The notes beneath the pieces were generated by a model. That model was not told the origin of the DNA. It was given only the letters and a program-made list of their open reading frames with translations, and did not search any database. Positions 9,499 through 35,009 of a DNA stretch of 54,347 nucleotides are shown here, one piece after another; within the stretch, counting starts at the first letter, position 1; each line of letters starts with the position of its first letter. Both the position numbers and the translations under genes were made by a program. Source of the DNA: an uncultured Oscillospiraceae bacterium (GTDB taxonomy: Bacteria > Bacillota > Clostridia > Oscillospirales > Oscillospiraceae); NCBI GenBank assembly GCA_944385425.1, contig CALWXD010000146.1, positions 1-54,347 on the forward strand, read 5' to 3'.

Positions 9499-10308
9499 AT
9501 GCGGGTCATTGATATGCACACGCATATTTTCCCGGATAAAATCGCGAAAAAAGCCACGGTGGCCACGGCGGACTACTTTGAGCTGCCGGAGCCGCCCAAC
9601 CACTACGGCACCGTCCAGGAGCTGGTGGATGTGCTGTGGGAGGCGGGCATCGACTACGCCATGGTCTTCTCCGCCGCCACCACCGCCCACCAGGTGGAGC
9701 ACATCAACCGCTATATCTACACCGAGGTGCAGGACTACCCCCAGTTTCTCCCCTGCGGCACCCTCCACGCGGAGTACGAGGGGTTTGTAGAGGAGCTGCG
9801 GTGGCTGCGGGAGCACGGGATCCACGGCATCAAGATCCACCCGGAGTTCCAGCACTTTGTCCTCAACGACAGGCGGCTCTTCCCCATGTTTGAGGAGATG
9901 GCCGCCCACGACATGTTCCTCATCTCCCACATGGGGGACCCCCGGGTGAACGTGTCCGGGCCGGAACGGATGATCGAGGTGGCCACCGCCTTCCCCAAGC
10001 TCCGGTGCATCGGCGCCCACCTGGGCAACTGGGGGGACTGGGACCTGGAGAAGATCGCCCCCCTGGCCAAGCTCCCCAACGTCTACGCCGACATCTCCAG
10101 CACCTTCTCCTACACGGATGACCATGAGACGCTGATGGCGATCCTCCGCGCCTACGACCCCACCCACTTGTTTTTCGGCAGCGACTATCCCATCTGGTGC
10201 CCCAAAAAGGAGCTGCGGAAAGTGCTGCGCCTGGGGATCCAGGAGGACCTGCTGGAGGATATTCTATTCAACAACTTCGCCCGGTTTTACCACTACCGGG
10301 CCCTCTGA
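9499..10308 (+). CDS. amidohydrolase-2 (TIM-barrel metal-dependent hydrolase) family protein
   Basis: MRVIDMHTHIFP... (the HxH metal motif at the N-terminus), ...HMGDP..., ...FGSDYP... acidic C-terminal motif. Confidence 0.7.
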   Translation: MRVIDMHTHIFPDKIAKKATVATADYFELPEPPNHYGTVQELVDVLWEAGIDYAMVFSAATTAHQVEHINRYIYTEVQDYPQFLPCGTLHAEYEGFVEELRWLREHGIHGIKIHPEFQHFVLNDRRLFPMFEEMAAHDMFLISHMGDPRVNVSGPERMIEVATAFPKLRCIGAHLGNWGDWDLEKIAPLAKLPNVYADISSTFSYTDDHETLMAILRAYDPTHLFFGSDYPIWCPKKELRKVLRLGIQEDLLEDILFNNFARFYHYRAL

Positions 10309-10320
10309 TCCGCTCTATGA

Positions 10321-10361
10321 GCCCGCGGGAACGGCCCTCTCCCCGCGGGCTTTCTTTTTTT
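10321..10361 (+). terminator. rho-independent terminator
   Basis: GCCCGCGGG-aacggccctctcc-CCGCGGGC followed by TTTCTTTTTTT. Confidence 0.7.
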
Positions 10362-11062
10362 CCTCCATCTCTTGGGAGGTTTCGCCCCCGGGCGAGGTAC
10401 TTTTTTCACGACAGTCGTAGGCTCTTTCCGCCCCCCGTTCTCTTTTTAAGAAAAAGAGAACGGGCCGCGGCCGGTCCAAAAGAAAAACTTTTTGACAGAC
10501 AGGGCTAGCTTATCCCGATTCCCCCAGGCTTTTTTCATCTTTCGCTGCATGTTGTGTCTGCCTGCGTTACCGACCGCGCCTTCCGTTTCACTAGGCGCTG
10601 GCCTGGTGAAAGGCGGAGGCTGCTGCCTTCATTTCCTGCCGTACCAGCGCGCAGCGGAGCGGTCAGCGCGGAAAGAGGAGCAGGCAGGCACAACGGCGGC
10701 GAAGGAAACGCAGTCTAACAAAAGGAGGGCAGACTTCCCCTGCTGGTAAAAGCGCCCTTTTACGGGGCCCCCGCCGGAGCCCAGCGCAGCGGGTCCGATG
10801 GGGAGAGGAGGCGCAGCGCAGCGAGGGAGCTCTGCCGCGCGCGGCAGAGCGACCGATGCGCAGCTTGTGCCGACGAGGACCGGCCACGGCCCGTTTATCT
10901 CCGGGCCAAGTGCCGCTGCACAGCGTCGGCTGCCCTCCGATTCACGCCTGCGGGCGTAGTCTTTTCGGCATGACGAAAAGAAAATGGGGGGTGGGATCGT
11001 CTCCCCAATGTGGGGGCGGATTCGCCCTTCTCAATGGGGAGTGAAAAAAACTGCCCCTGGGC

Positions 11063-11118
11063 TTGACAAATTTGTTATACGCTTGTATAATGCAGTCAGA
11101 AATTATACAATTGTATAA
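11063..11118 (+). promoter_or_regulatory. sigma-70-type promoter with two BlaI/MecI/CopY-type operator dyads
   Basis: TTGACA (11063-68), a 17 nt spacer, then TATAAT (11086-91). A perfect 16 bp dyad TTATAC-GCTT-GTATAA (11075-90) overlaps the -10. A second dyad TTATAC-AATT-GTATAA (11103-18) abuts the SD. Both contain the TACA/TGTA half-sites of the penicillinase-repressor family. Confidence 0.65.
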
Positions 11119-11130
11119 GGAGGACATGCG

Positions 11131-11520
11131 ATGGGCGGACGGACAAAACGGCTGGGGGACGCGGAGCTGGAGATCATGCAGGTGATCTGGAGCAGCGAAG
11201 AACCGGTGCGCTCCACCTACGTCCAGCAGCAGCTGAAAAACCGGCGGGACTGGCCCCTGCCCGCCGTGGCCACGGCGCTGAACCGGCTGGTGGAGAAGGG
11301 GTATCTGCTGTGTGAAAAGGAGGGGCGGGGCAACCTGTACCGCCCTCTGGTATCCGCGGCGGACTATCAGGCGGCGGAGGGCCGCAGCCTCCTCCACCGC
11401 CTCTACGGCGACTCCTTCACCGGCATGGTGGCCGCCCTGTACCGGGGCAAGGCCATCAGCCGGTCGGATCTTGCGGAGCTGCGGGACTTTTTGGATACGC
11501 TGGAGCGGGAGGAGGAGTAG
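11131..11520 (+). CDS. BlaI/MecI/CopY family transcriptional repressor
   Basis: 129 aa winged-helix penicillinase repressor signature (LGDAELEIMQVIWS...STYVQQQL...AVATALNRLVEKGYL). SD TAAGGAGG lies 8 nt upstream. Confidence 0.85.
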   Translation: MGGRTKRLGDAELEIMQVIWSSEEPVRSTYVQQQLKNRRDWPLPAVATALNRLVEKGYLLCEKEGRGNLYRPLVSAADYQAAEGRSLLHRLYGDSFTGMVAALYRGKAISRSDLAELRDFLDTLEREEE

Positions 11521-11522
11521 AC

Positions 11523-14453
11523 ATGGAACTGCTGCTGAATCTGTTGAAGGTCAGTCTGGTGGCCGGCGGGGCGACCGTGCTGCTGACGCTGTTGAAGCCG
11601 CTGCTGCGGCGCCGGTTCCACGCCAAGTGGCGGTACTGGGTGTGGCTGTGCCTGGCGGCGCTGCTGCTGACGCCGCTGCTGCCCAGTCTGCCCCTGTCCC
11701 TGCCGGCGGAGCGGGCCCCCATCCAGGTGGAGGTGCCGGCGCTGTCGGTGACCTATGAAACCGGCGGCGGGCTGGGCCTCAGCCCCCAGTCCGCCCCGGC
11801 CCCTCAGCTGCCGCCGCTGGAGACGGAGACCGCCGGCGGGACGCCGGTTGCCCCCGCCGACCTCCGGGAGTCTTCCCCTGCCACCGCCGGGGTGCGGGCG
11901 GCCTCCGCCGTCCCGCTGGAGGCGGTGCTGCTGGCCCTGTGGGCGGCAGGGGCCGCTCTTTTCCTTCTCTGGCAGCTGGCGGGGACGGTCATTCTCTCCC
12001 GCCGCGCCATGACGGCGGCCCGGCCGCCCCGGGCGGAGACGGAGGCTGCCATGGAGAAGGCCGCCAGCGAGCTGGGCCTTCGGCGGCGGCCCGCCCTCTG
12101 GGTCACCCCGGCGGTGGGGAGCCCCATGGTCGTCGGCCTTCTCCGCCCCAGGCTCCTGCTGCCGGTGGAGGACTACACGCCGCGTAGCCTTGCCTTCATT
12201 TTCCGCCACGAGCTGACCCACTGCCGCCGCCATGACCTCTGGTACCAGCTGGCACTGCTGCTGGCCAACGCGGTCCACTGGTTCAACCCCCTCGTCTGGC
12301 TGATGGTCCGCCAGGCCCAGGGGGACCTGGAGCTGACCTGTGACGACGCGGTGGTGGCCGGCGCCGACCGGGAGACCCGCCGGGCCTACAGCGAGACGCT
12401 GCTGGCAGCGCTGCACAGGCAGCGCCGCGCCGCCCTCTCCACCCACTTTTACGGCGGGAAGGCGGCCATGAAGGAGCGGTTTTGCAACATCATGGCCGGA
12501 CGGAGCAGGCGGCGGGGGACGGCCCTCCTCTGCCTGGCGGTGGCGGCCGCCGGGGCGGCGACCCTGGCCGTGGCCTGTACCGCCCAGCGGCCGGAGGCCC
12601 TTAGTGAGGAGGAGCTGGCTCTCTGGCAGGAGCGGGTGTCCACCCCGGAGTGGTACGGCTTTTTTGCCCACCCCTACAGCGACGTCACCCACCTGGATCT
12701 GGATGATATCCTGCTCTACGGCCTTGTGGGGACGGATGTGCTCCAGGTGGCCAGCGAGGAGGAGCGGCAGGCCTATCTCCAGTTCCACGGCTGGGACGAG
12801 GACAGCGGCCCGGAGGTGGTCTACCGCATTGATTGGGACGCTCTGGACGCCTTCCTGCAGGAAAAAATCGGCATCGGCGCGGCGGACCTGGCAGACAGCC
12901 TGGATCCCTATGACACCTTCACCGGCGCCGCTGACGACGCCTGGTACCGCACCGCCGTGGATTACGGCGTCACTTATATGGGAGAGGACCCCCAGATCAT
13001 CGCCGGACAGCGGCTGGGGGACACGGTGACGCTGACCGTGGACATCCGGGAGTCCGGCTACTACGGCCACGGCGGCCCCATGTCCACCCTCACCATGACC
13101 ATCCAGGACGGGAAGATCGTCAGCTACACCAACCCCTACTACAACGACGTGGAGGCCCTGACGGAGCAGTGGATCGCCGAGCAGGCCCAGGGCATGGAGG
13201 ACCTGGGCATCCCGGTGGAAAAGGCGGTGGTGGACATCTTCCGCTGCGACGGGTACACCGAGGACGGCTACACCCAGTGGCTGGTGTCCTGGCGCTTTCT
13301 GCCGGAGGACGTGGATGACCCGGACCTGGACCGCCTGGCGGAGACCAGCTGGGTGGAGGAGCAGGGCTGGCGGGTCCAGCTGGGCAGCCCCTACACCTAC
13401 CTCATCTTCCGCTCCACGGCGGACGGCGGGGCGGAGCTAGTAGAGGCTGTGCCGGACAGCGAGATCACCTTCCCCTTTGCCGCCTATGTCCGCTATGTGA
13501 TGCAGGAGGGGCTCACCTTCTCCAAACACGGCTCCTACTACCCGGCGGCGGACACCGCCTTCCTCCGCTCCCTGGCGGTGGGCGGGGAAGCCTGGGCCAC
13601 CGACTGCGAGACGGTGGCGGAGCGGTTTGTGGCCGCCCAGGGCTACACCCCCGCCGGCACATCCGTGCTGGATCAGGGCCTCTCTGGAAACGGGCCCTCC
13701 GGGGAGCTGGTCCTTCTCCGGGTGGATACGGAGGAGGGGGCAGCCTTCACCCTGCTCATGAACGACCTCCTGCTGGAGATGCAGCTGGATCCCTCCAGCG
13801 GTTCTTTGACCTCCGCCCGCTACTGGGCCGTGATGGGCTATAAGGCGGAGGGGACAAACGTACAGCCGGCGGAGGACAGCTTTGTGCTGCAGAACGTCCT
13901 GCCAGATCCCATGATCCCCGCGGGCTTTTATCTGGTGCTGCCCAACAACTGGGCCTTCTATCTCAACGACTGCCTGGAGGGCGCGGCGGCCTCCACCGTG
14001 TCCCCCCTGGCCGTCAGCTACCCCGGCAATTCCTTCGGCACGCCGGAGATCGACTCCATCCAGCAGGAGACCCAGCGCACCACGGAGGACGGTCTGATCC
14101 AGGAGATTTTGCAGGTGACCTGCGCCATCCCCGTGACGGAGGTGGGCGGCGGGGCGGTTCTCCCCGCCGGCGACGCGGACGACGCCGGGACGTGGACCTA
14201 CTACGACTCCACCATCCGTCTGGCGGTGGAGCGGGACAGCCGCGACGTCCTCCGCACCTGGACCTTCCGCAGCGCCTTGGATCAGGAAAACACAGGTGAG
14301 GACTATATCCAGGCCCTCTGGGCGGAGGCGGAGGCCGCTCTCAGCCGGGGGGAGGGGCTGGAGACCCACGACGTGTCCCCCGCCATCTTCTGGGACACGG
14401 TGCAGGGGGAGCTGTACGCCGTCTCCTTCCAGCCTGTCCAGCCGGCGGAGTAG
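11523..14453 (+). CDS. BlaR1/MecR1-like signal transducer: an M56 zinc-metalloprotease membrane domain fused to a large (~600 aa) non-PBP extracytoplasmic domain
   Basis: N-terminal TM helices are followed by the HEXXH motif FRHELTHCRRHD and a further TM (ALLCLAVAAAGAATLAVAC). The ~620 aa C-terminal domain has no SxxK/KTG penicillin-binding motifs. The gene is translationally coupled 2 nt after the blaI-like stop. Confidence 0.8.
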   Translation: MELLLNLLKVSLVAGGATVLLTLLKPLLRRRFHAKWRYWVWLCLAALLLTPLLPSLPLSLPAERAPIQVEVPALSVTYETGGGLGLSPQSAPAPQLPPLETETAGGTPVAPADLRESSPATAGVRAASAVPLEAVLLALWAAGAALFLLWQLAGTVILSRRAMTAARPPRAETEAAMEKAASELGLRRRPALWVTPAVGSPMVVGLLRPRLLLPVEDYTPRSLAFIFRHELTHCRRHDLWYQLALLLANAVHWFNPLVWLMVRQAQGDLELTCDDAVVAGADRETRRAYSETLLAALHRQRRAALSTHFYGGKAAMKERFCNIMAGRSRRRGTALLCLAVAAAGAATLAVACTAQRPEALSEEELALWQERVSTPEWYGFFAHPYSDVTHLDLDDILLYGLVGTDVLQVASEEERQAYLQFHGWDEDSGPEVVYRIDWDALDAFLQEKIGIGAADLADSLDPYDTFTGAADDAWYRTAVDYGVTYMGEDPQIIAGQRLGDTVTLTVDIRESGYYGHGGPMSTLTMTIQDGKIVSYTNPYYNDVEALTEQWIAEQAQGMEDLGIPVEKAVVDIFRCDGYTEDGYTQWLVSWRFLPEDVDDPDLDRLAETSWVEEQGWRVQLGSPYTYLIFRSTADGGAELVEAVPDSEITFPFAAYVRYVMQEGLTFSKHGSYYPAADTAFLRSLAVGGEAWATDCETVAERFVAAQGYTPAGTSVLDQGLSGNGPSGELVLLRVDTEEGAAFTLLMNDLLLEMQLDPSSGSLTSARYWAVMGYKAEGTNVQPAEDSFVLQNVLPDPMIPAGFYLVLPNNWAFYLNDCLEGAAASTVSPLAVSYPGNSFGTPEIDSIQQETQRTTEDGLIQEILQVTCAIPVTEVGGGAVLPAGDADDAGTWTYYDSTIRLAVERDSRDVLRTWTFRSALDQENTGEDYIQALWAEAEAALSRGEGLETHDVSPAIFWDTVQGELYAVSFQPVQPAE

Positions 14454-14637
14454 GGTACCGTGGGGAAGGTGACAAATTTTTTCAAATTTTTGGAAAAGGC
14501 GCGGAACCTTTGGCCTTCTCTTTGCGTCTATAAAAGATAAGAGGATACGGACAGGCGGTTGTCTGTCCGTATCCGGCTTGCACATTGCTTTGGCCGCCGC
14601 CCCGCGAGGGCTGGGGCCGGGGAACAGGGGGGAGACC

Positions 14638-16938
14638 ATGCAGGAGGAGAAAACGCGGAAGCGCCGGCCGCCGATCCGGTATTTCGCGGCGGCGGCAGCC
14701 GTGCTGCTCATCGCGGCGGCGGCCATGGGGGCCTCCCTGCTCCGCAGCCGCAGCGGCCCCCTCTCCCAGGAGGCCCTGGCGGAGTGGGAGCAGCGGCTCA
14801 ACAGCCCGGAGTGGCGGGGGCTGGTCTCCCAGCTCTACAGCGACCGTGCCTATCTCAGCGCAAGCCGCCTGCTGGAAAGCGGCGGTCCCGTCCGGGAGCC
14901 CACGGCGGAGGAGATGGCCGCCCTCCGCGCCCTGGGCGGGGAGCCGGAGGACGGCTCCCCATGTCTCGCCGTGTCGGAGGATGCGCTGGACGACTATCTG
15001 GCGGAAAAGACCGGCCAGGGGCTGGACGCCTTCCGCCACACCCTCTCTGACTGGACCTACCTCCCCGACAGCGGCGCCTACTGCCGCGCCGCCGCGCCGG
15101 CGGAGGAGGGCGCCCCTCTCACCGTCACCGGCGGGGAGCAGGAGGGGGACACCCTGGTGCTCTTCCTCCGCCGGGAGGGGGCGCCCCAGGCCCTGGGCGA
15201 CACGGTTCTCACCCTCGCCGGCGGCAGGGTGCAAAGCCACACCAACGAGCAGTACAACGCCGTGGAGGCCATGGCCCTGGACCTTCTCAGCCGGCAGGTC
15301 CGCACCCTGGAGGACGGCGGGACGGCGGTCCAGTCCGCCTACCTCGCAAGCCTCCGCTGCGTGGACTGGCGGGAGGACGGCTACTTCCTGTGGGCGCTGG
15401 ACTACCGCATCCTCCCCGCGGAGGACGGCGCGGCGCAGGCGGGCGCCGCCGTCTCCCGGGACGGCTGGCTCACCGCGGACAGCGGCCAGGGACTCCCCCT
15501 CTTTATCGTCAAGGGGGACGCGGACGGCCGCTTTGTGCTGATGGACACCCTCTCCAGCGGCGCCATGCCTGTGGAGGACTGGAACCAATATGTGGACTAT
15601 GCGCTGGAGCTGGGCCTGGCGGTGGATTTCGGCCGGCCCTGGCCGGAGGCCACCGCCTCCCTGCTGCGCTCGGTGGCCTCCGGCGGCGAGCAGTGGGCCA
15701 CCACCCTGGAGGGGGTCCTTACCGGCTACCTGCTCTCCTGCGGCGACACCCTGGAGGGCTGGGAGACCCTCTCCTCCTCCGTGGGGCCGGCGGCAGGCGG
15801 GCAGACGGCGACGTATGTGGTGGCCTCGGCCCGGGAGGACGCCGGCCTGCGGCGGTACACCCTCCTCTGCCGCCGCAGCCTCTACACCGACACCCAGGAC
15901 GTCCGCCCCATCAGCCTGTGGCAGGTGGTGGGCGTCCGGACGGAGGGGGAGGCCCCCGCCGCTCCCCGGGCCGCCGCCGGCCGCAGCCAGACCATAGAGC
16001 TGACGGCGGGGGAGACGGCGATCCCCTGCTATCTGGCCCAGGGCGGCGGCAGCTACGGGCGGTACGCCTGGAGCCTCTACCTCCCCCAGACCTGGCGGCA
16101 GGACGGCAGCCGCTGGTATCCCAGCGCCAGCCAGCTCAGCGCCTTCCTGGAGATCCGCTCCCATGAGCGGGGCTACACCCTGCAGCAGTTTTACGACTCC
16201 TTTGCCCGCTACGCCGGCGTAGAGACCTACCTCCTCTGGGAGGGGACCGCCGCCTGGGCCAGGGGGCACAGCGGCCGCCAGCAGATGACGGAGTCCCTCC
16301 TCTTCCAGGGGGAGGACGGGGTCTTTGAGGTCATGTGGACCTACCCGGAGGGGTATGAGGACCGGGGCCTCTTTGCCGCCGCGGCGGAGACCTTCCTCCC
16401 CGGCGGCGCGGCGGGCCGCCTCCCCTTCTCCCAGGAGGAGGACGGCGCCCCGGCGGCGGCGCTGACGGAACGGGAGCCGGCCGTGCCGGAGGAGCTGTGG
16501 CTGGTGCTGCCCGGGGGCGGCGCCTGGCGGGCGGCGGATCTCTTCGCCCCCTATCTCCAGGCCCTCTCCGGTGAGGCCGCCTTTACCGGGTGCAGCGTCC
16601 TGGCCACCCTCTCCGCCGGCCAGGGGCGGGAGCTGGTCCTTCTCTTCGGCCAGTTCCCCGTCCCCCTGGAGGAGGGGGAGGCGATCCCCACCGGGGCCTA
16701 TGCCAGCGACAGCGGCCGGTGGATGAAGGACGTCCCCCTGTGGCTGGCGGTGGAGCACGACGGAGAGCGGATCCTCTCCCTCCGCGCCCTCTCCGCGCCC
16801 AGGGCGGTTCCCCCCTCCGCCCCGCTGCTCCGGTCCCTGCTGGACGTCCCCGCCGACCCCTTCTCCGCGCCCCCCGGCGGCTGGCGGGACGCGGAAACCG
16901 GCCGCGTCCGGGAGGCGGAGGACAGCCCCGCCCCGTAA
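14638..16938 (+). CDS. membrane-anchored extracytoplasmic protein, a paralog of the sensor domain of the upstream BlaR1-like protein
   Basis: An N-terminal signal-anchor (RYFAAAAAVLLIAAAAMGASLL) is followed by a domain clearly homologous to residues ~350-900 of the BlaR1-like protein. Examples: LSQEALAEWEQRLNSPEW aligns with LSEEELALWQERVSTPEW, HTNEQYNAVEAM with YTNPYYNDVEAL, and LLRSVASGGEQWATT with FLRSLAVGGEAWATD. The ATG at 14638 is preceded by GGGGGGAG. The track start is a TTG. Confidence 0.6.
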   Translation: MQEEKTRKRRPPIRYFAAAAAVLLIAAAAMGASLLRSRSGPLSQEALAEWEQRLNSPEWRGLVSQLYSDRAYLSASRLLESGGPVREPTAEEMAALRALGGEPEDGSPCLAVSEDALDDYLAEKTGQGLDAFRHTLSDWTYLPDSGAYCRAAAPAEEGAPLTVTGGEQEGDTLVLFLRREGAPQALGDTVLTLAGGRVQSHTNEQYNAVEAMALDLLSRQVRTLEDGGTAVQSAYLASLRCVDWREDGYFLWALDYRILPAEDGAAQAGAAVSRDGWLTADSGQGLPLFIVKGDADGRFVLMDTLSSGAMPVEDWNQYVDYALELGLAVDFGRPWPEATASLLRSVASGGEQWATTLEGVLTGYLLSCGDTLEGWETLSSSVGPAAGGQTATYVVASAREDAGLRRYTLLCRRSLYTDTQDVRPISLWQVVGVRTEGEAPAAPRAAAGRSQTIELTAGETAIPCYLAQGGGSYGRYAWSLYLPQTWRQDGSRWYPSASQLSAFLEIRSHERGYTLQQFYDSFARYAGVETYLLWEGTAAWARGHSGRQQMTESLLFQGEDGVFEVMWTYPEGYEDRGLFAAAAETFLPGGAAGRLPFSQEEDGAPAAALTEREPAVPEELWLVLPGGGAWRAADLFAPYLQALSGEAAFTGCSVLATLSAGQGRELVLLFGQFPVPLEEGEAIPTGAYASDSGRWMKDVPLWLAVEHDGERILSLRALSAPRAVPPSAPLLRSLLDVPADPFSAPPGGWRDAETGRVREAEDSPAP

Positions 16939-16946
16939 GAAACAGC

Positions 16947-16984
16947 AAAGGCCCGCAGGCGCATCGCGCCTGCGGGCCTTTTCC
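16947..16984. terminator. bidirectional rho-independent terminator
   Basis: AAAGGCCCGCAGGCGC-atc-GCGCCTGCGGGCC followed by TTTT. It sits between convergent genes. Confidence 0.7.
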
Positions 16985-16996
16985 CGTTCCCTTTCG

Positions 16997-18022
16997 TTAT
17001 TTGAACCGGGTGACGCAGCTGCGGTTGATCTCCGGGAGGCTGTGGACGCCGCACATGGCCATGGTGTCCGCCAGCTCCGCCTTCAGCCGCCGGATGTAGA
17101 GGGCCGCCCCCTCCGCCCCGCCGCCGTAGAGGGCGGGGACAAAGGGCCGGCCGATGAGCACCCCGCGGGCCCCCAGGGCCAGGGCTTTGAACACGTCCAT
17201 CCCCGTGCGGATGCCACCGTCCACCAGGACGGTGAGGTCCTTCCCCACCGCGTCGACGATGGTGGGCAGCACCTCCGCCGTGGCGGGGCACTGGTCCAGC
17301 ACCCGGCCGCCGTGGTTGGAGACCACGATGGCCTTGGCCCCGGCGGCCGCGGCCTTCTCCGCCCCCCGGACGGTCATGATCCCCTTGAGGATGAAGGGCA
17401 GGTCCCCGCAGGCCGCCGCCACCTCCCGCAGCTCCTCCACCGTCTTGCTGCCGGCGGGGGGCGTCAGGTTCTGGAGGAAGGGCAGGCCCGCCGCGTCGAT
17501 GTCCATGGCGATGGCGGCGGCGCCGGCGGCCTTGGCCATCTCCAGCTTGCGGAGGAGGGTGTCCCGGTCCCAGGGTTTGACGGTGGGGATCCCCGCGCCG
17601 CCGCTGCCCTGGATCGCGGCGCAGGCCCCCTCGAACACCCGGGGGTCTGTGCCGTCGCCGGTGAAGGCGGCGATGCCCTCCCCGGCGCAGGCGGGCACCA
17701 GGATGTTGTTGTAGGAGAGGTCGTCGTGCTTGTCGCCGTAGTGCAGCTTCAGCGCGCCAATGGGGGCGGCGAAAATCGGCGCGGAGAACTGCCGCCCCAG
17801 CAGCGCCGCCGACAGGTCCACCGGCTTGTTCTCACAGATGGTGTCCAGGTTCACCAGCACCTCCTGCCACTTCTGGTAGTTGCGGATGGCGCCGGTGCCA
17901 AGGCCCTTGGCCCCGGGGCCGGGCACGGTATTGCGGCAGGCCAGGCCGTTGCACACCGGGCAGGCCTTGCAGTGGGGGCCGACGCAGGTCCGGGCGGCGG
18001 CCAGCACTTCCTCGTAGGTCAT
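16997..18022 (-). CDS. FMN-dependent alpha-hydroxy-acid dehydrogenase/oxidase family protein
   Basis: 341 aa with a TIM-barrel FMN signature (VSNHGGR, GGIRTG). There is an N-terminal Cys cluster CKACPVCNGLAC. SD GAGGAGGAG. Confidence 0.8.
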   Translation of the reverse strand: MTYEEVLAAARTCVGPHCKACPVCNGLACRNTVPGPGAKGLGTGAIRNYQKWQEVLVNLDTICENKPVDLSAALLGRQFSAPIFAAPIGALKLHYGDKHDDLSYNNILVPACAGEGIAAFTGDGTDPRVFEGACAAIQGSGGAGIPTVKPWDRDTLLRKLEMAKAAGAAAIAMDIDAAGLPFLQNLTPPAGSKTVEELREVAAACGDLPFILKGIMTVRGAEKAAAAGAKAIVVSNHGGRVLDQCPATAEVLPTIVDAVGKDLTVLVDGGIRTGMDVFKALALGARGVLIGRPFVPALYGGGAEGAALYIRRLKAELADTMAMCGVHSLPEINRSCVTRFK

Positions 18023-18194
18023 GAATCGCTCCTCCTCATCTCATCAGTCTTCTGCCGACGGGCAGATCTCCGGTCTATACCGGATTTGACCACATTGTAG
18101 CGAAAATTTTCTCTTCCTGCAAGGGAGGACGGCACTTTTTCCTTCTCCCTGCGTCTATATGGATAGAACCCCTATTTTGAAAGGAGGAAGACGG

Positions 18195-19100
18195 ATGAAA
18201 CTCTTGCGGAAAACAGGGGCGGCCGCCCTGCTGCTGGCCCTGGTGCTGCTGCTTGCCGGCTGCAGCGCCGGAAGCTCGGACAACTCGGCCTTTGACACCG
18301 GCGGCAGCGGCTCCAACGGCGCCGGCGGCTGGTCCGACAGCGCCGCGCCGGAGGAGGAGGGCGTCTCCGACGACGGGGAGGCAACGCTCCAAGACGGGCC
18401 CAAGAAGATCTACACCGGCTACATCGAGGCGGAGACCACGGACTTCGCGGCCGCCCAGCAGTCCCTGGCGGACATGGTGGCGGAGGCGGAGGGGTACTTC
18501 TCCAACCGCAGCGTCTCCAACCACGGGGCCTACCGGTACGGGGACTATACCATCCGGGTGCCGGCGGCCCGGTTCCAGGGCTTCCTCTCCCAGGTGGGGG
18601 AGGGGCTCCATGTGACCTACCAGACCGACAGCGAGGAGGACGTGTCCGAGGCGTACTACGACATCGCGGGGCGCCTGGCCACCCAGCGCACCAAGCTGGA
18701 GCGGCTCCAGACCCTCCTCAGCCAGGCGGAGAGCATGGCGGACATCATCACCATTGAGGACGCCATCAGCGAGACGGAGTGGATGATCGAGGACCTGTCC
18801 GGCAGTCTCCAGAGCTACGACAACCGCATCGACTACGCCACGATGACCGTCTCCCTCCGGGAGGTCTACCGCCTCTCCGGCAGCGAGGAGCCGGTGACCA
18901 CCCTGGGTGGGCGGCTGAAGGAGGCCTTTACCGGGGGCTTACGGAACGTGGGCAGCGTCCTGGAGGAGCTGGCGGTCTGGCTGGTGTACAACTGGGTGTG
19001 GCTGGCGCTGCTGGCGGCCATGGCGGCCGGCGCGGCGGCGCTGATCCGCCGGCGGAAAAAGCGGCGGCAGCCCCCCGGCGGCGGGAAGGAGGGGCAGTGA
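18195..19100 (+). CDS. DUF4349-like lipoprotein with a C-terminal membrane anchor
   Basis: It has a lipobox (LLLAGC), a coiled-coil middle and a C-terminal TM plus a basic tail. The ATG at 18195 follows AAGGAGGAAG. Confidence 0.7.
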   Translation: MKLLRKTGAAALLLALVLLLAGCSAGSSDNSAFDTGGSGSNGAGGWSDSAAPEEEGVSDDGEATLQDGPKKIYTGYIEAETTDFAAAQQSLADMVAEAEGYFSNRSVSNHGAYRYGDYTIRVPAARFQGFLSQVGEGLHVTYQTDSEEDVSEAYYDIAGRLATQRTKLERLQTLLSQAESMADIITIEDAISETEWMIEDLSGSLQSYDNRIDYATMTVSLREVYRLSGSEEPVTTLGGRLKEAFTGGLRNVGSVLEELAVWLVYNWVWLALLAAMAAGAAALIRRRKKRRQPPGGGKEGQ

Positions 19101-19615: not shown

Positions 19616-20386
19616 CTACAGGGTGGAGAGGACATCCTCCACCCTGACGCAGTGGTTGGGAAAGCGGTCCAGAAGGGGCCGGTGGGCCGTGGCCATAAGA
19701 TAGGCGGTGCCGGCGGTCTCCAGCAGGGGGACGTCGTTGTAGTTGTCGCCAAAGGCCGCGACCTCCCCCGGGGAGATCCCCAGGCAGCGGCACAGCTGCC
19801 GCAGCCCCGTCCCCTTGTCCGCCAGGGTGAAATCCAGCCACGGCTCCCCCGCCACCGCCACCCGGAACCGCTCCCGCCACCGGGGCGCCAGCAGCGGCTC
19901 CACGCCGGCCGCGCCGGTACGGCAGAAGGCCGACACCTTGACGATCTCCTCCGGCACCTCCTCCGGCGCGGAGAGCAGCGCCACCCGGTTGCCCACAAAA
20001 TCCCGGACCTGGACCACCACGTCCTCCGCCTTGGGGCAGAGGTAGCTGGTGTTGACCCCGGAGATCAGCACCTCGCACTCAGGCCGGTCCAGGATCTCCC
20101 GGCACAGCGCCAGGGCCGCCTCCTGCCCCATGGCGGTCTTGCTCAGCACCGGCCCCGCCGCTCCCGGTCCAAAGACCACCGCCCCGTTTTCACAGATGTA
20201 GCAGAGCTCGTCCGCCACCGGGGCAAACAGCCGGCGCAGGCTGCTGTACTGCCGCCCGCTGGCCGGGCAGAAGCCGATCCCCTTCTCCGCCAGCCGGCGG
20301 ATCTGGTAAAAAACCGCCGGGTCGATGGCGGTGCTGCCGTTTTGCAGGAGCGTCCCGTCGATGTCACAGGCAACCAAACGGATCAT
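19616..20386 (-). CDS. Cof-type HAD-IIB family hydrolase
   Basis: MIRLVACDIDGTLL... is HAD motif I. FGDNYNDVPLL is HAD motif III. The ATG at 20386 follows GGAGGGGGAG. The longer track ORF is a GC-rich upstream extension. Confidence 0.8.
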   Translation of the reverse strand: MIRLVACDIDGTLLQNGSTAIDPAVFYQIRRLAEKGIGFCPASGRQYSSLRRLFAPVADELCYICENGAVVFGPGAAGPVLSKTAMGQEAALALCREILDRPECEVLISGVNTSYLCPKAEDVVVQVRDFVGNRVALLSAPEEVPEEIVKVSAFCRTGAAGVEPLLAPRWRERFRVAVAGEPWLDFTLADKGTGLRQLCRCLGISPGEVAAFGDNYNDVPLLETAGTAYLMATAHRPLLDRFPNHCVRVEDVLSTL

Positions 20387-20592
20387 GGTTCTCCCCCCTC
20401 CAGGCGGCGTCCTCCGCCGGGCGGGCGGGGCGCGCGTTTTCTCCCCTAAGCGTAGCAGAAGAGCGGGCCCAATACAAGTGGGCGGATTGGAGAAACCCGG
20501 GGCGAACACCGGCGGTCCTTTTGTACGCTGTGCAAAAAAAGCGGCCCGCCGGCGGGCGGGGCGCGGCGGCAAAAGGCTATGCTCCCTGCATA

Positions 20593-20621
20593 TTGTTCTG
20601 CCCCGGCGCAGTTGCTATAAT
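20593..20621 (+). promoter_or_regulatory. candidate sigma-70 promoter of the TIR/SPFH/RCC1 operon
   Basis: TTGTTC (20593-98), a 17 nt spacer, then TATAAT (20616-21). It lies ~120 nt upstream of the first ATG, in the divergent intergenic region. Confidence 0.45.
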
Positions 20622-20741
20622 TATAGGATAAGAAATTGCATGCGCCGTGGGGCACACCAGGATAACCGGCAAAAGAACGCGGCCCATATCGCAAAACAGC
20701 GGAAACGCCGGCGCGGGCAAAAAAGACAGGAGGAGCGGAAA

Positions 20742-23480
20742 ATGGCCATCATCAAGTGCAAAATGTGCGGCGGGGACATCCAGCTGTCCCCGGACCAGAG
20801 CTTTGGGACCTGTGAGTACTGCGGGTCCACCATGACGCTGCCGAAGGTGGACGACGACCAGCGGGCCGCCGCCTTCAACCGGGGCAACCACTTCCGGCGG
20901 CTGGGGGAGTTTGACAAGGCGCTGGCGGTCTATGAGGGCATCGTCCGGGAAAACGAGAACGACGCCGAGGCCCACTGGTGCTGCGCCCTGTGCCGGTTCG
21001 GCATCGAGTATGTGAAGGACCCGGCCACCGGCGCCTACATCCCCACCTGCCACCGGGCCAGCTTTGACAGCTTTCTGGAGGACGTGGACTACAAGGCCGC
21101 CCTGGACCACGCCGACGCCGCGGCGCGGGAGCAGTACCGCCGAGAGGGGGAGCAGATCGCCCAGATCCAGCGGGGCATCCTCTCCATCTCCCAGCGGGAG
21201 CAGCCCTACGACGTCTTCCTCTGCTACAAGGAGACCGGGGAAAACGGCCAGCGCACCGTGGACTCCACCCTGGCCCAGGACATCTACTACCAGCTCACCG
21301 AGAAGGGCTACCGGGTGTTCTTCTCCCGGATCACCCTGGAGGACAAGGCCGGGCTGGAATATGAGCCCTATATCTTCGCCGCCCTCCACTCCGCCCGAGT
21401 CATGGTGGTGGTGGGGACAAGGCCGGAGCACTTCAACGCCGTGTGGGTGAAAAACGAGTGGAGCCGGTTCCTCGCCCTCATGAAAACAGACCGCAAGCGC
21501 CTGCTGATCCCCTGCTACCGGGATATGGACCCCTACGACCTGCCGGAGCAGCTGTCCGTCCTCCAGTCCTACGACATGAGCCGCATCGGTTTCCTCCAGG
21601 ACCTGGTGCGGGGCATCTCCAAGGTGCTGGAGGGGGAGAAAAAGCCGGAGGTGAAGGAGACCGTCATCGTCCAGGGGGAGGGTGGGGCCAACACCGCCGC
21701 CCTCCTCAAGCGGGGGCAGATGGCCCTGGAGGACGGGGACTGGAACGGCGCCTCCACCTACTTCGACCGGGTGCTGGATATGGACGCGGAGTGCGCCGAG
21801 GCCTTCTTCGGCAAGGCCCTGGCCGCCCGGAAGTGCGCCAACGCCCAGGCCTGGGTGGACCAGCTGATCCACTTCGGCCAGGTGCAGACGGAGAAACGCA
21901 CCGCCTGCGAGGAGGACATGGACCGGGTGGGCGCGGCCATGAAACAGTACTTCGTCCCGGAGTATTTGGACAAGGACGACATCCGCCAGGAGTTCACCCA
22001 CTTCGACCGGCAGTACGACTCCGCCCTCGCCCACTGGCGGCGGCGGGAGGAGGTGGTCCGGCACTTCCTGGAGAGCGACAAGCTGGTGAGCCGGGCCGGC
22101 CGCTTTGCCAAGGGGGACTTCGCCAGGACCCTGCGGGGCTATGAGGACCAGGTCCTCGCGGGCATCCGCCAAAAGCAGGAGGAGGCCGCGGCCCAGGACG
22201 CCCAGAGCGCGGAGCGGGTGAAGGCGGACTATGCCGCCTTCCTTACCGCCACGGAGGAGAAGGCCCAGAAGATGCACGACAACGCGGCGAAACGCCGGGA
22301 GGAGGACTATGCCGCCGCCTGCGCCGCCATGGAGGCCGCGAGGGACTCCCGCGGCTATGCCGACGCGGCGGAGCTCTTCCGGCAGATCGGCCCCTTTGCC
22401 GACTGCCGGGAGCGCTCGGAGCAGTGCCTGGCCCGCGCTGAACAGCTGCGCCAGGAGGAGGAACGCCTGGCCCGGGAGGAGGCGGAGCGGAAGGCCGCCG
22501 CCCAAGCCAAGGAGAAGGCCCGCCGCAAGGCCAAGGCCAAAAAGACCGGCATCATCCTTCTGATCGCCGCCGCGGCGATTGCCGCGGTCTGCGCCGTGGT
22601 GACGCTGGTGGTGATCCCCAACATCCGCTACGGCGAGGCGGTGGAGCTGTGGGACAGCGGCGACGAGCTGGGGGCCATGGAGATCTTCTGTGAGATCCGC
22701 GGCACCAAGGACGCCCAGGACTACTGCGACGAGTTCTTCGCCCCCTATATCGAGATCCTGACGGCCGGGAAATGGGAGTCCTATGAAAAAGAGGTATCCT
22801 ACTCTCCCGGGACCACTTACGAGTATTCTTATACCTTCAACGCGGACGGCACCTGCACCAAAATCTCTAACCGCCGGTGGGAATCGGGCGGGTATCCCCG
22901 CATCAGCAGCTCGGAATATGACTGCACCTACACCCTGGCGGTCCAGGACGGGGATGTGGTGGCCCTGGTCCACGAAACGGAACACGGTTCCGACTACACG
23001 GTGACCGTCTCCCACGGGCGGGACGGCGGCTACCACCTGGAGGAACCCTCTGACGACAGCTTTGACGGGACAAACTTCATCTTCAAGGCGCCGGAGGAGC
23101 TGACGGCAGCGTCCGGGGAGGAGGAAGAGCCTAACGGCAGCGACCTCTATCTGGCGGAATTGATGGAGTCCGACCATGCGCAGGACATTCTCTACGTTTG
23201 GAGAGAGCAGGGCTTTGAGGCGTACCGTGTGGAGGGAAACACCGTCCATTTCATGAAATATGTGACCAACACGGCCGATCTCAGCCTGGAGAAATTACAG
23301 GAAACCTTCAAAAATGAGATCGAGCCGTTGGCGGGGCTGGCAGCAGAACACTTGGCATACCTCTGTGAGCTCTACTATGAAGCCTATGCAGTCGAGCCGG
23401 ACGGAGCGCTCACCTTCTCCATGGAGTACTATGTGGACGACGAGCTGGTCTACAACGTGACCATGGATTCGGATATGTGA
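20742..23480 (+). CDS. zinc-ribbon / TPR / TIR-domain / coiled-coil protein with a single TM and a ~240 aa extracytoplasmic C-terminal domain
   Basis: The N-terminal zinc ribbon is CKMCGG...CEYCG, followed by TPR-like helices. A TIR-like domain spans ~aa 195-330: YDVFLCYKE..GYRVFFSRITLEDKAG..VMVVVGTRPEHFNAVWVKNEWSRFLAL..RLLIPCYRD. It shows the betaA DVFxSY strand, a betaB-like VFFS strand and an SxW..E-like segment. A second TPR module follows (EGGANTAALLKRGQMALEDGDWNGA...), then a ~240 aa charged helical region. The TM is KAKAKKTGIILLIAAAAIAAVCAVVTLVVI with positive charges on the N-terminal side, and a Cys-containing C-terminal domain follows. The ATG at 20742 follows ACAGGAGGAG. Confidence 0.75.
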   Translation: MAIIKCKMCGGDIQLSPDQSFGTCEYCGSTMTLPKVDDDQRAAAFNRGNHFRRLGEFDKALAVYEGIVRENENDAEAHWCCALCRFGIEYVKDPATGAYIPTCHRASFDSFLEDVDYKAALDHADAAAREQYRREGEQIAQIQRGILSISQREQPYDVFLCYKETGENGQRTVDSTLAQDIYYQLTEKGYRVFFSRITLEDKAGLEYEPYIFAALHSARVMVVVGTRPEHFNAVWVKNEWSRFLALMKTDRKRLLIPCYRDMDPYDLPEQLSVLQSYDMSRIGFLQDLVRGISKVLEGEKKPEVKETVIVQGEGGANTAALLKRGQMALEDGDWNGASTYFDRVLDMDAECAEAFFGKALAARKCANAQAWVDQLIHFGQVQTEKRTACEEDMDRVGAAMKQYFVPEYLDKDDIRQEFTHFDRQYDSALAHWRRREEVVRHFLESDKLVSRAGRFAKGDFARTLRGYEDQVLAGIRQKQEEAAAQDAQSAERVKADYAAFLTATEEKAQKMHDNAAKRREEDYAAACAAMEAARDSRGYADAAELFRQIGPFADCRERSEQCLARAEQLRQEEERLAREEAERKAAAQAKEKARRKAKAKKTGIILLIAAAAIAAVCAVVTLVVIPNIRYGEAVELWDSGDELGAMEIFCEIRGTKDAQDYCDEFFAPYIEILTAGKWESYEKEVSYSPGTTYEYSYTFNADGTCTKISNRRWESGGYPRISSSEYDCTYTLAVQDGDVVALVHETEHGSDYTVTVSHGRDGGYHLEEPSDDSFDGTNFIFKAPEELTAASGEEEEPNGSDLYLAELMESDHAQDILYVWREQGFEAYRVEGNTVHFMKYVTNTADLSLEKLQETFKNEIEPLAGLAAEHLAYLCELYYEAYAVEPDGALTFSMEYYVDDELVYNVTMDSDM

Positions 23481-23511
23481 TTTCCGCCAGGCGGAAGGAA
23501 GGAGGAGCACC

Positions 23512-30102: not shown

Positions 30103-30104
30103 CG

Positions 30105-30893
30105 TTACACCTCATTCGTCTCTATCAGAGTCCGCTGGCACAGTACGGCACACAACTGCCGCCGGTACTGCGCGCTGGCCCGCATGTTGCTCCCAAAGCA
30201 CAACTCCTCCGCAGCGGTCCGGGCAGCGAGGGAAACCGCCGCTGGATCCCTTGCAAGCTGTTCCATCGCCCCATAGGCAAGAGCCGCGCACATCGGGCGA
30301 GCCCCTACCGCTATGCGGTACCCAGTTTCTGTGCGGACGGATGCCACATTGAGCAGGGAGAAGTCCCCCTTGGAATTTCGGAAATTGGAAAATGCGCCGG
30401 CCGCGTTGCCGGCGGGCAAGATGATTTCGACCAACAGGTCCCGTGTGCGGGGCTGCTTTAGAAACGCTTCCAGGGTAAGCTCCCCTTGCGCAAACAGCCG
30501 GACGCGGGCATTGCAGGCCAGCAGCGGCGTAATGACATCGGAAAACCCATATTTTGAAAAAACGCTGGCACCAACTGTGGCCAGGTTGCGGAACTGCGTA
30601 CCAATAATTTCACCGACAGAACGGCTGATGATGCCGCCGCAATAGCGTCTTAGGAGGGGCGAGGTCTCCAGAGTGCGCAGGGAGCACATTGCGCCAAGGC
30701 GCAGTGTACCGTCGGACTCCTCACGGATGTAGTCTAGACCGCAGCCAGACAGGTCAATGGCAAGGGGGATATCGGCGGAGGTCATCCGAAGGAAGAGGTT
30801 GCCGGCGATGAGGCGGCTGCGCTTATTCTTTTGCAGCAGATTGGCGCATTCCTCAATACTTTTGGGGATAACGTATTCTTTCACCCGGTACAT
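30105..30893 (-). CDS. FAD-binding subunit of xanthine dehydrogenase family enzyme (CoxM/XdhB-like)
   Basis: 262 aa. FAD_binding_5 signature (RLIAGN...). The start is coupled to the upstream subunit. Confidence 0.8.
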   Translation of the reverse strand: MYRVKEYVIPKSIEECANLLQKNKRSRLIAGNLFLRMTSADIPLAIDLSGCGLDYIREESDGTLRLGAMCSLRTLETSPLLRRYCGGIISRSVGEIIGTQFRNLATVGASVFSKYGFSDVITPLLACNARVRLFAQGELTLEAFLKQPRTRDLLVEIILPAGNAAGAFSNFRNSKGDFSLLNVASVRTETGYRIAVGARPMCAALAYGAMEQLARDPAAVSLAARTAAEELCFGSNMRASAQYRRQLCAVLCQRTLIETNEV

Positions 30894-30907
30894 AGAGGGT
30901 CCTCCTT

Positions 30908-31366: not shown

Positions 31367-31573
31367 AAGATATCTGTCCTTTCAAAATCATAGAAGAGAT
31401 GGCTTGACAAAGCGGAGAAAACCTTTTACCATATCAAATGCGCCCCTTGTTTCTCCCAAAAGGCTCCGACCAGAACGATCATAGGAGATGGTAACATTAC
31501 TGACCGAGAGATTGTAGAATCATATATCCCTATTGCAAAATTTATTGCGGCGGTATCCGGTCCCCGTTGTGAA

Positions 31574-32179: not shown

Positions 32180-32182
32180 AAT

Positions 32183-32220
32183 GCGGAGTCTGCATGCCGG
32201 TGTGTAGGCTCCGCTTTTTT
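32183..32220 (+). terminator. rho-independent terminator
   Basis: GCGGAGTCTGCATGCC-ggtgtgt-AGGCTCCGC followed by TTTTTT. Confidence 0.7.
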
Positions 32221-32293
32221 ACACAGGCCGGCCGGCTTTGCAAAGAATGGGCGCTATTTTCAAAATAGCACCCATTCTTTGCGCGTTTCATGC

Positions 32294-33875: not shown

Positions 33876-33967
33876 AATTTTTTATTATTATATGAGAGGA
33901 ACCTGCCCATTGTCCCGTTGCAGAACCCACACACCCCGCATGACCGTAATAAAAAAGGAGGAACCAG

Positions 33968-34996: not shown

Positions 34997-35009
34997 GGGG
35001 GCGTTTGCT

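Follow-up and report, generated by a model that had tools for sequence, protein, structure and literature searches.

Staphylococcus aureus BlaR1 cleaves the repressor BlaI directly. A 2026 survey (Kurtz et al.) found that ~94% of M56 "BlaR" proteins are without a penicillin-binding domain, so that a non-penicillin-binding sensor is the usual situation in this family (PMC13492132). The commonest architecture is an M56 domain with neither a transpeptidase (TP) domain nor an identifiable C-terminal Pfam domain (PMC13492132), and the signal is known for almost none of the BlaIR-like pairs in this majority. Here we describe such a pair in a window of 54,347 nt (the whole stretch of DNA that was analysed) from an uncultured Oscillospiraceae bacterium. 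The initial annotation implied that a BlaI/BlaR1-type cassette with another kind of sensor is unusual, which overstated the case, as a transpeptidase domain is present in only ~6% of ~15,000 M56 proteins (PMC13492132). We suggest that the locus probably encodes a two-gene, self-repressed proteolytic switch of the BlaIR type with a non-PBP sensor, and that the neighbouring gene G3, a paralogue of the sensor, encodes a separate envelope protein (Table 1).

Table 1. Predicted features of the blaI-like operon and of G3, in window coordinates.
Feature	Position	Strand	Remarks
Sigma-70-type promoter, blaI-like operon	11063..11091	+	12/12 consensus matches; position kept in related loci
O1, putative operator, dyad TTATAC-GCTT-GTATAA over -10	11075..11090	.	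Equivalent dyad in 17 loci
O2, putative operator, dyad TTATAC-AATT-GTATAA	11103..11118	.	Order: predicted transcription start, O2, Shine-Dalgarno sequence
Shine-Dalgarno sequence AAGGAGG of repressor gene	11117..11123	+	7 nt 5' of ATG at 11131
blaI-like winged-helix repressor gene, 129 aa	11131..11520	+	PF03965 Penicillinase_R, 5e-29
M56 membrane metalloprotease module, aa 1-349	11523..12569	+	PF05569 Peptidase_M56
Sensor module A, aa 350-780, start EELALWQERVSTPEWYGF	12570..13862	+	Models suggest NTF2/cystatin-like alpha+beta units in tandem
Sensor module C, aa 781-976 (...LAVERD...PAIFWD..LYAV), with stop codon	13863..14453	+	Low-confidence model
ECF-sigma-type candidate promoter of G3, GGAAC-N17-CGTCT	14503..14529	+	Consensus and conservation
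Hairpin, 12-bp stem, in predicted 5' leader of G3	14543..14574	+	T-run on minus strand only; kept in L011
G3, signal-anchored extracytoplasmic protein, 766 aa	14638..16938	+	Sensor paralogue
GC-rich hairpin, 16-bp stem, between convergent G3 and FMN_dh	16947..16981	.	Probably a bidirectional terminator

The promoter of the operon is made up of the -35 TTGACA (11063-11068), a 17-nt spacer and the -10 TATAAT (11086-11091), and is the single 12/12 sigma-70 consensus site within 10300-18300. The two TTATAC-N4-GTATAA dyads that the initial annotation placed at the -10 and at the Shine-Dalgarno sequence (SD) are exact: O1, whose core is TACGCTTGTA, overlaps the -10 by its first five bases, and the 3' end of O2 reaches 2 nt into the SD. 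The O2 core TACAATTGTA is identical to the TACANNTGTA box of the BlaI/MecI/CopY family (operator consensus, PMC7253601). O1 and O2 are the two exact matches to TTATACNNNNGTATAA in 54 kb, with none found in 100 shuffles and none expected; when two mismatches are allowed, one further, unrelated site appears in the window, at 33859. Furthermore, TACNNNNGTA and TATACNNNNGTATA are confined to blaI promoters in the window and the 25 loci searched, and no BlaI-type dyad was found in the window beyond O1 and O2, or outside blaI promoters in the 25 loci. Seventeen loci from uncultured Oscillospiraceae, with BlaI proteins that are 55-87% identical, show the same arrangement of a -35, a dyad on top of the -10, a gap of 11-14 nt, another dyad and an SD; the consensus of the second dyad is TACA-NN-TGTA, with a degenerate TACA half in 4 of the 17. 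The predicted autorepression of the operon by the BlaI-like protein is well supported by this recurrence. No regulon members besides the operon itself were found within this 54-kb contig, and an Rfam search of 10200-17100 returned nothing near a gathering score.

The annotation of the first two genes as a BlaI/BlaR-type pair of a repressor and an M56 HEXXH protease holds up well. PF03965 covers aa 8-122 of the repressor (101.3 bits; gathering score 22.6), which aligns over its full length with MecI (1okr/1sd6, ~1e-11); matches to the NCBIfam models BlaI_of_BCL, MecI and BlaI_of_MRSA (65.7, 40.7 and 21.5 bits) stay below the cut-offs of 180-250. The N↓F scissile pair of MecI (LVLN↓FVEKE) is aligned to VAAL↓YRGKA and is not matched, and the repressors of relatives have L↓Y, L↓V or L↓C at this position, so that the cleavage site cannot be predicted from MecI/BlaI. 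The repressor stop TAG (11518-11520) is separated by 2 nt from the transducer ATG at 11523, 5' of which GGAGG lies within the final blaI codons.

The transducer gene (11523-14453) encodes 976 aa, of which aa 6-323 match PF05569 (1e-52, 179.1 bits; gathering score 31). Hydropathy indicates four hydrophobic segments (~aa 3-28, 38-62, 126-159 and 332-355), with a Pro/Ala-rich outer loop of 65 aa between TM2 and TM3, and homology suggests that the protease is cytoplasmic and the C-terminal domain outside. The protein has HELTH at aa 229-233 (nt 12207-12221) and, as further zinc-site residues, E270xxxD274. In the alignment, H229/E230/H233, E270, D274 and R319 correspond to BlaR1 H201/E202/H205, E242, D246 and R294 (PMC9834060), and the gluzincin motif set HExxH...ExxxD is complete together with the Asp-pairing Arg (motif definitions, PMC9834060). 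In addition, LSTH↓F (aa 305-309) is aligned to the S. aureus BlaR1 autocleavage loop LSHS↓F (PMC9834060).

The remaining 627 aa (aa 350-976) form the ectodomain, which was correctly described as acidic and aromatic (D+E 16.9%, K+R 4.6%, F+W+Y 11.2%) and as devoid of PBP motifs: neither SxxK nor K[ST]G occurs in aa 350-976, and SGN is present once. Pfam returned no match to the ectodomain even at E<=10, and no PF00905, and a PDB sequence search with the transducer and G3 ectodomains gave no match at E<=10. The fold check suggested in the initial annotation points the same way, since the structure models of the ectodomain suggest tandem NTF2/cystatin-like modules and show no PBP fold. The sensor-domain family is small, with 30 cluster representatives among 1.84 billion, and is found in one lineage only. 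The modules, as modelled with medium confidence, resemble the RsgI9 S1C-NTF2 bi-domain (PDB 7sjy) and PsbP/DcrB/LpqN-like envelope lipoproteins at the level of the fold only (5-16% identity over 70-110 aligned residues), and a common function cannot be deduced from this.

We infer repressor binding, repressor cleavage and signal dependence from sequence, conservation and analogy, and propose that the switch works in the following way. A repressor dimer would bind O1 over the -10 and O2 in the interval between the transcription start and the SD, keeping its own operon off. Its partner would be a four-TM M56 gluzincin with the HELTH/ExxxD site in the cytoplasm and an acidic ectodomain of NTF2/cystatin-like alpha+beta modules, which would sense a non-beta-lactam envelope or environmental cue; sensing would be non-covalent, as no serine-acylation motif is present in the ectodomain. 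By analogy with S. aureus BlaR1, the signal would then cross the membrane and lead to cleavage of the repressor and derepression of the operon, along with that of unlinked genes with TATAC-N4-GTATA operators, if any.

It could be argued that the transducer does sense beta-lactams, through a penicillin-binding domain that has diverged strongly. What speaks for this is the family name only, in that NCBIfam blaR1_generic matches the M56 part of the transducer, whereas motifs, Pfam/NCBIfam and the fold search are all against it, and we reject beta-lactam sensing as exceedingly improbable. This agrees with the initial view that the inducer is unlikely to be a beta-lactam and that no resistance gene is linked: the cassette and G3 are surrounded by DcuC, Amidohydro_2, FMN_dh and DUF4349 genes, and no beta-lactamase or PBP gene is among the neighbouring genes. 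Another reading is that the repressor senses metal in the manner of CopY and that its M56 neighbour is incidental, as the top NCBIfam match of the repressor is CopY_TcrY (TIGR02698, 6e-19) and the O2 core is the cop box TACANNTGTA (PMC7253601). However, this match reaches 68.6 bits where the cut-off is 121.95, the adjacent genes do not include one for a copper ATPase or chaperone, and an M56 gene lies directly 3' of blaI in 17 out of 17 loci. Moreover, the repressor has one Cys (C61) and no C-terminal CxC metal site, which argues that it is not a CopY protein. CopY-type metal sensing was therefore rejected, and we give it hardly any chance.

G3 has one TM segment (aa 11-37) followed by modules A, B and C, the second of which is not found in the transducer. 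Its start at ATG 14638 is also that of the public record, and the longest open reading frame begins at TTG 14578. Its identity with transducer aa 356-777 is 29% (E = 4e-32), and as the A modules of the two proteins are only 28-29% identical, the duplication is old. Several G3 orthologues are lipoproteins, and a Foldseek search of the G3 model against the PDB gave no meaningful whole-chain match (TM <= 0.10). Upstream of G3, consensus and conservation point to a promoter of the ECF-sigma type, for which a -35 GGAAC/AAC and a -10 CGTC, 16-17 nt apart, have been described (PMC3397946). GGAAC and CGTCT are invariant in five aligned orthologous upstream regions, and GGAAC-N16/17-CGTCT stands upstream of every G3-type gene examined, with only 3 other matches in 25 loci. 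A sigma-54 reading of GGAAC...TTGC was rejected, as the GG-GC spacing is wrong. A sigma-70 reading (TTGGCC, 15 nt, TAAAAG) fits poorly, and it is GGAAC and CGTCT, not this pair of hexamers, whose bases do not vary. A phmmer search of the 54-kb window with approximate RpoE and SigW query sequences, which is a weak test, detected no ECF sigma gene.

How G3 relates to the switch is the main point on which we depart from the initial annotation, which took a second copy of the sensor domain for the controlled output. On that reading, blaI, the transducer gene and G3 form one operon, and G3, as a free sensor copy, is what BlaI derepression switches on. Both genes are on the same strand, with the G3 ATG 184 nt 3' of the transducer stop and no convincing terminator in the interval (the fold of 14405-14500 has z = 0.35, which is not significant). 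In at least three related loci (this window, L003 and L011) the two genes lie side by side, which could reflect a functional link. There is also a precedent in Clostridioides difficile CenIR, whose most strongly induced gene encodes an exported protein 215 bp downstream (PMC13492132). However, G3 has no BlaI-type dyad upstream and has its own conserved promoter motif. Furthermore, G3-type genes occur without blaI/M56, both in DcuC-Amidohydro_2-G3-FMN_dh arrangements (L006 and L007, the former syntenic with this locus) and in other contexts (L008 and L009). Conversely, L001 has a blaI/M56 pair without G3, as do 14 genome loci, all of which (14/14 matches, in Oscillospiraceae or Clostridiales MAGs) have blaI, M56 and module A. 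Nor was a conserved gene seen 3' of the M56 gene in five scanned relatives (sampled: L012, L013, L016, L017, L020 and L023); the genes sampled there have nothing in common (DBI_PRT, polysaccharide deacetylase, ferredoxin, or without a Pfam match). A single operon with G3 as its output thus seems unlikely to us. Since G3 has no dyad and no terminator was found between the genes, read-through would be the only possible link between BlaI and G3, and our best explanation, which we consider probable as a whole, is that G3 is transcribed mainly from its own ECF-sigma-type promoter with at most some read-through from blaI.

A further idea, to which we give a still smaller chance, is that G3, anchored in the membrane, adjusts the M56 sensor as its co-receptor or decoy, through which an ECF-sigma input from envelope stress would act on the BlaIR switch. 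The homologous A module is common to G3 and the transducer, and their adjacency is maintained in one lineage. In addition, multi-sensor loci recur, as seen from two tandem M56-sensor genes behind a single blaI in L016 and L019, and BlaR1 functions as a dimer with its sensor and loop in contact (PMC9834060). The low identity of the A modules and the finding of each partner without the other in related genomes argue against it. In its most elaborate form, which is highly speculative, an ECF-controlled envelope lipoprotein family would have been captured as a BlaR-type ectodomain, with free G3 as co-receptor or decoy for the same envelope ligand in a two-input circuit. It seems just as doubtful that, in such a circuit, the signal peptide became TM4 with the lipobox Cys still conserved, coupling ECF stress to BlaIR proteolysis.

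While nothing known is overturned by this BlaI/BlaR-like system, we suggest that it is a reasonable model for what gut Clostridia sense with BlaIR-like switches. Its operator TATAC-N4-GTATA is sharply defined and phylogenetically footprinted, and could allow the regulon to be read in any complete Oscillospiraceae genome; the free-standing paralogue G3 might provide a soluble handle with which to fish for ligands.

Among known systems, the pair resembles BlaI/BlaR1 and MecI/MecR1 of S. aureus and Bacillus licheniformis in its PF03965 repressor followed by an M56 gluzincin with four predicted TM segments, HExxH...ExxxD and an aligned autocleavage-loop motif (PMC9834060), and in two TACA/TGTA-type dyads at the promoter of an operon that is, here by prediction, autoregulated (PMC7253601). 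It differs from them in that its sensor has no transpeptidase-like domain (SxxK/SxN/KTG, PF00905 or PBP fold), its repressor has no N↓F scissile pair and falls short of the NCBIfam equivalog cut-offs, and no bla or mec resistance gene is divergent or linked. With the CopY/CopR copper repressors it shares the winged-helix family, the 10-bp TACANNTGTA core and two promoter operators (PMC7253601), whereas the CxC metal site and cop genes are absent here and RNYKACANNTGTMRNY is not matched in the flanks of the 16-bp operator. Mycobacterial BlaI/BlaR, with no sensor domain, and Pseudomonas aeruginosa PvmSR are described as further pairs of the BlaIR family without a role in the control of beta-lactam resistance (PMC13492132; preprint 10.64898/2026.08.03.742534), but they belong to other phyla, have different or absent ectodomains and share no sequence with the present sensor. 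C. difficile CenIR and other non-canonical BlaIR-like pairs are alike in having an M56 protein without a TP or C-terminal Pfam domain (PMC13492132), and this class also has blaI immediately upstream, a presumably envelope-related signal and a gene for an exported protein ~200 bp downstream (PMC13492132). Unlike in CenIR, however, the downstream gene here is a sensor paralogue with its own candidate ECF-type promoter, and whereas the CenR tail is short (~125 aa) and mostly unstructured (PMC13492132), the present ectodomain is large and modellable, its 627 aa being predicted to consist of folded modules of a small, one-lineage family.

The initial annotation described a repressor gene followed by an adjoining M56 membrane protease with a HELTH motif, and both family assignments are borne out by strong profile matches (see the table). 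The stop codon of blaI (TAG) is separated by 2 nt from the ATG of the transducer, a gap consistent with translational coupling. The repressor can be aligned to MecI over its full length; it contains a single cysteine, lacks a CxC metal site and scores below the NCBIfam thresholds of CopY, BlaI and MecI. The transducer has four membrane segments by hydropathy, and a 65-residue Pro/Ala-rich loop between segments 2 and 3 occupies the position of the extracellular loop EL1 of BlaR1. Its M56 part could be aligned to Staphylococcus aureus BlaR1 (PDB 8exp) over BlaR1 residues 191-311, and reading this alignment against the motifs of the BlaR1 structure (PMC9834060) gave the catalytic correspondences listed below. 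Judged by these motifs the protease is catalytically complete, and both protease and repressor look functional. The scissile pair of MecI, N101/F102, aligns with L/Y in the window repressor and with L/Y, L/V or L/C in relatives; the cleavage site of the repressor therefore cannot be predicted.

Features of the blaI-transducer-G3 region, sensor modules and catalytic correspondences
Feature	Position	Strand	Description
-35 of blaI promoter	11063-11068		TTGACA
-10 of blaI promoter	11086-11091		TATAAT
Operator O1	11075-11090		exact dyad match; overlaps -10
Operator O2	11103-11118		exact dyad match; last 2 bases inside Shine-Dalgarno
Shine-Dalgarno of blaI	11117-11123		AAGGAGG, 7 nt 5' of ATG at 11131
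blaI-like gene	11131-11520	+	129 aa; PF03965 Penicillinase_R, 5e-29
Transducer gene	ATG 11523	+	976 aa; residues 6-323 PF05569 Peptidase_M56, 1e-52
G3 promoter motif	14503-14529	+	GGAAC-N17-CGTCT; consensus and conservation
G3 (sensor paralogue)	14638-16938	+	766 aa; next gene after transducer; public gene call uses same start
Module A			~430 aa; starts EELAxWQERLxSPEWxGF
Module B			~180 aa; QGGGxYGxYxWSLYIP...RWYP
Module C			~190 aa; AGTYLVLP...WLAVEHDGE...PAIFYD
HELTH motif	residues 229-233		H229-E230-x-x-H233; BlaR1 H201ExxH205 (alignment)
Second catalytic motif	residues 270-274		E270-x-x-x-D274; BlaR1 E242xxxD246 (alignment)
Arginine	residue 319		R319; BlaR1 R294 (alignment)
Putative autocleavage loop	residues 305-309		L305-S-T-H/F309; BlaR1 L280-S-H-S/F284 (alignment)

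Upstream of blaI lies a sigma-70-type promoter of perfect consensus with a 17-nt spacer, the sole site of this type that a consensus scan recovered within 10300-18300. The two 16-bp dyads that had been placed over its -10 and the Shine-Dalgarno sequence are indeed present: TTATACNNNNGTATAA has exactly two matches in the 54-kb window, O1 and O2, and none in 100 dinucleotide-preserving shuffles, while allowing up to two mismatches adds a single unrelated site at 33859. Because the surrounding region is 62-73% G+C, two AT-only 16-mers are conspicuous. Two operators per promoter are usual in the CopY/BlaI/MecI family, and O2 has as its 10-bp core TACAATTGTA, the TACANNTGTA box common to these repressors (PMC7253601). 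When the 140 nt 5' of blaI were lined up for 17 loci, all 17 showed the same order: a -35, a (T)TATAC-N4-GTATAAT dyad forming the -10, 11-14 nt, a second dyad of the TACA-NN-TGTATAA type, and the Shine-Dalgarno sequence. The left half of the second dyad is degenerate in four of them (CACA or GACA for TACA in L021, L022, L024 and L025), with the right half TGTATAA retained, and a scan of the related loci found no TATACNNNNGTATA outside blaI promoters. Since this dual-dyad layout is conserved in 17 loci though their BlaI proteins are only 55-87% identical to that of the window, autorepression of the operon by the predicted operators is well supported at the sequence level.

Two other features of this upstream region were observed. 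A third inverted repeat, GTTAC-N6-GTAAC, which could be a candidate site for another regulator, adjoins a TTGC-type -35 about 60-80 nt 5' of blaI in L012, L013, L017, L018 and L020-L025; it is absent from the window, where the -35 is TTGACA. Between Amidohydro_2 and the blaI promoter, the window has ~750 nt (10309-11062) without a convincing ORF or Rfam match, and in the closest genome (L014) the gap from Amidohydro_2 to blaI is only ~120 nt.

On its sequence, the large extracytoplasmic domain of the transducer is not a PBP. As the initial annotation had it, the 627 residues lack penicillin-binding motifs (no SxxK, no K[ST]G, a single SGN) and are acidic and aromatic (D+E 16.9%, K+R 4.6%, F+W+Y 11.2%). 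Nor is a resistance gene linked: DcuC, Amidohydro_2, FMN_dh and DUF4349 flank the locus, and no beta-lactamase or PBP gene is close to it. No Pfam family matched any ectodomain sub-module at E<=10, and a PDB sequence search with the ectodomains returned no match. Relatives are scarce: a word-indexed search found four among 5.8 billion clusters, and thirty were recovered when 1.84 billion representatives were searched exhaustively with HMMER. Scanning one genome per GTDB species yielded 14 loci, all from uncultured Oscillospiraceae or Clostridiales MAGs and all with M56 plus module A immediately 3' of blaI. Aligning the family members resolved three modules, combined as M56+A+C in the window transducer, M56+A+B+C in some relatives and TM+A+B+C in G3. 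AlphaFold2 models from a shallow alignment of 15 sequences reached pLDDT 68 for the sensor (module A mostly 75-92, module C poor) and 74 for the G3 ectodomain (module A mostly 80-95). Neither model contains a PBP or beta-lactamase fold, and Foldseek with the G3 model gave no meaningful match in the PDB. The modelled sensor is most honestly described as probably a stack of small alpha+beta modules for binding a ligand or protein, belonging to a sequence family not described before. A third architecture was seen in P0011 (737 aa, L008 175-2388), with a weak BNR_2 (sialidase-like) N-terminal region, the distal part of module A, and module C; that contig also carries a G3 orthologue.

The proposal that was not supported is that the second sensor copy, G3, is the controlled output. 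G3, which is 29% identical to transducer residues 356-777 (E = 4e-32) and held in the membrane by a signal-anchor, has no BlaI-type dyad 5' of it. It has its own promoter motif. When five orthologous upstream regions, otherwise diverged, were aligned, GGAAC and CGTCT did not vary; the motif stands 5' of all G3-type genes retrieved (L003, L006, L007, L008, L009, L010 and L011) and has only three other matches in 25 loci. GGAAC/AAC at -35 with CGTC at -10 is an ECF-sigma signature that experiments in a different representative of the Clostridia have dissected (PMC3397946), and from consensus and conservation we assign the G3 promoter to this type. Approximate RpoE and SigW queries (phmmer) matched no ECF sigma gene in the 54-kb window. 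G3 also occurs without the pair: L006 and L007, syntenic with the window (DcuC and Amidohydro_2 83% identical, FMN_dh 82%), have the order DcuC-Amidohydro_2-G3-FMN_dh-DUF4349 with no blaI/M56, and in L008 and L009 G3 is divergent from a GntR-ABC operon. Conversely, L001 has the pair without G3, followed by an opposite-strand gene, and ten ORFs sampled 3' of M56 at six genome loci (L012, L013, L016, L017, L020 and L023) revealed no conserved gene family. Finally, the A modules of transducer and G3 are only 28-29% identical, compared with 35-59% among orthologues of each, so the duplication is old and not a local tandem event.

Some linkage is nevertheless favored by the adjacency of transducer and G3 retained in the window, L003 and L011, and by the variable slot between Amidohydro_2 and FMN_dh, which holds blaI-transducer-G3 in the window, G3 alone in L006 and blaI with two transducers in L016. 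Moreover, we found no convincing terminator between transducer and G3, so read-through into G3 may contribute. Weighing these points together, we think it unlikely that G3 is the true BlaI output through read-through, and a role as co-receptor or decoy appears more doubtful still.

Several side observations concern these loci. One blaI followed by two tandem M56-sensor genes was seen in L016 (4551-10765), at the same DcuC-Amidohydro_2 position as in the window, and in L019 (163-5706). Just 3' of the ECF-type -10, a hairpin with a 12-bp stem (14543-14574) has its T-run on the minus strand and was thus scored as a minus-strand terminator, although no gene on that strand terminates at this point; L011 retains the hairpin with loop changes, and more distant orthologues do not. 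In L006, a second GGAAC-N-CGTCT motif (2653-2679, minus) lies ~50 nt 5' of an unannotated 286-aa gene (1745-2605, minus), a further candidate for the same ECF regulon.

The picture we consider probable is a BlaIR switch accompanied by G3 as an envelope protein expressed from an ECF-type promoter. S. aureus BlaR1 cleaves BlaI directly and signals through movements of its sensor and EL1 (PMC9834060). By analogy, the ectodomain would sense a non-covalent ligand or envelope state outside, the M56 protease would be activated inside and the repressor cut, and the blaI-M56 operon, predicted to be controlled by an autoregulatory promoter with two operators, would be derepressed along with unlinked genes bearing the same dyad.

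TM4 of every M56 fusion in the sensor family ends in small-small-Cys (for example LAVAC/TA, LAAAC or VAAGC; 12516-12590 in the window, transducer residues 332-356). At the corresponding point the free-standing G3 orthologues P0016, P0036, P0037, P0039 and P0040, which are lipoproteins, have a canonical LAAC lipobox, and this match suggests that the M56 fusion captured a lipoprotein precursor whose signal peptide became TM4. As signal peptidase cuts S. aureus BlaR1 after TM4 (PMC9834060), it is conceivable that the sensor is shed from the transducer.

Elsewhere in the window, 27793-41378 is a stretch of lower GC (48-60% vs 62-73% elsewhere) encoding a xanthine-dehydrogenase-type molybdoenzyme, a cytosine/purine permease, two luciferase-like monooxygenases, an M24 peptidase/creatinase, an F420-dependent NADP oxidoreductase-like protein, a PLP enzyme and an F420-0:gamma-glutamyl ligase fused to a nitroreductase domain. 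An Oscillospiraceae genome would not be expected to carry an F420-linked cluster, and this one may have been acquired horizontally as an island. At 20325-25386, the gene for a 1051-aa TIR_2 + TPR protein is followed by that for an SPFH/Band-7 protein of 624 aa carrying zinc ribbons at its C-terminus, and the two may form a defence-type pair.

A BlaR with a non-PBP sensor is the norm, since a survey of ~15,000 M56 proteins in a study of Clostridioides difficile CenIR (2026) found a transpeptidase domain in only ~6%, the commonest architecture having no identifiable C-terminal domain; 96% lay within five genes of a BlaI-like repressor (PMC13492132). Non-beta-lactam BlaIR pairs have been studied in mycobacteria, as cited in that survey, and one in Pseudomonas aeruginosa, as presented in a preprint (10.64898/2026.08.03.742534). 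What is specific to the system described here is a sensor-domain family that is small and restricted to a single lineage, a clean and conserved operator, a free-standing sensor paralogue with a different promoter type, and the two-sensor loci of its relatives.
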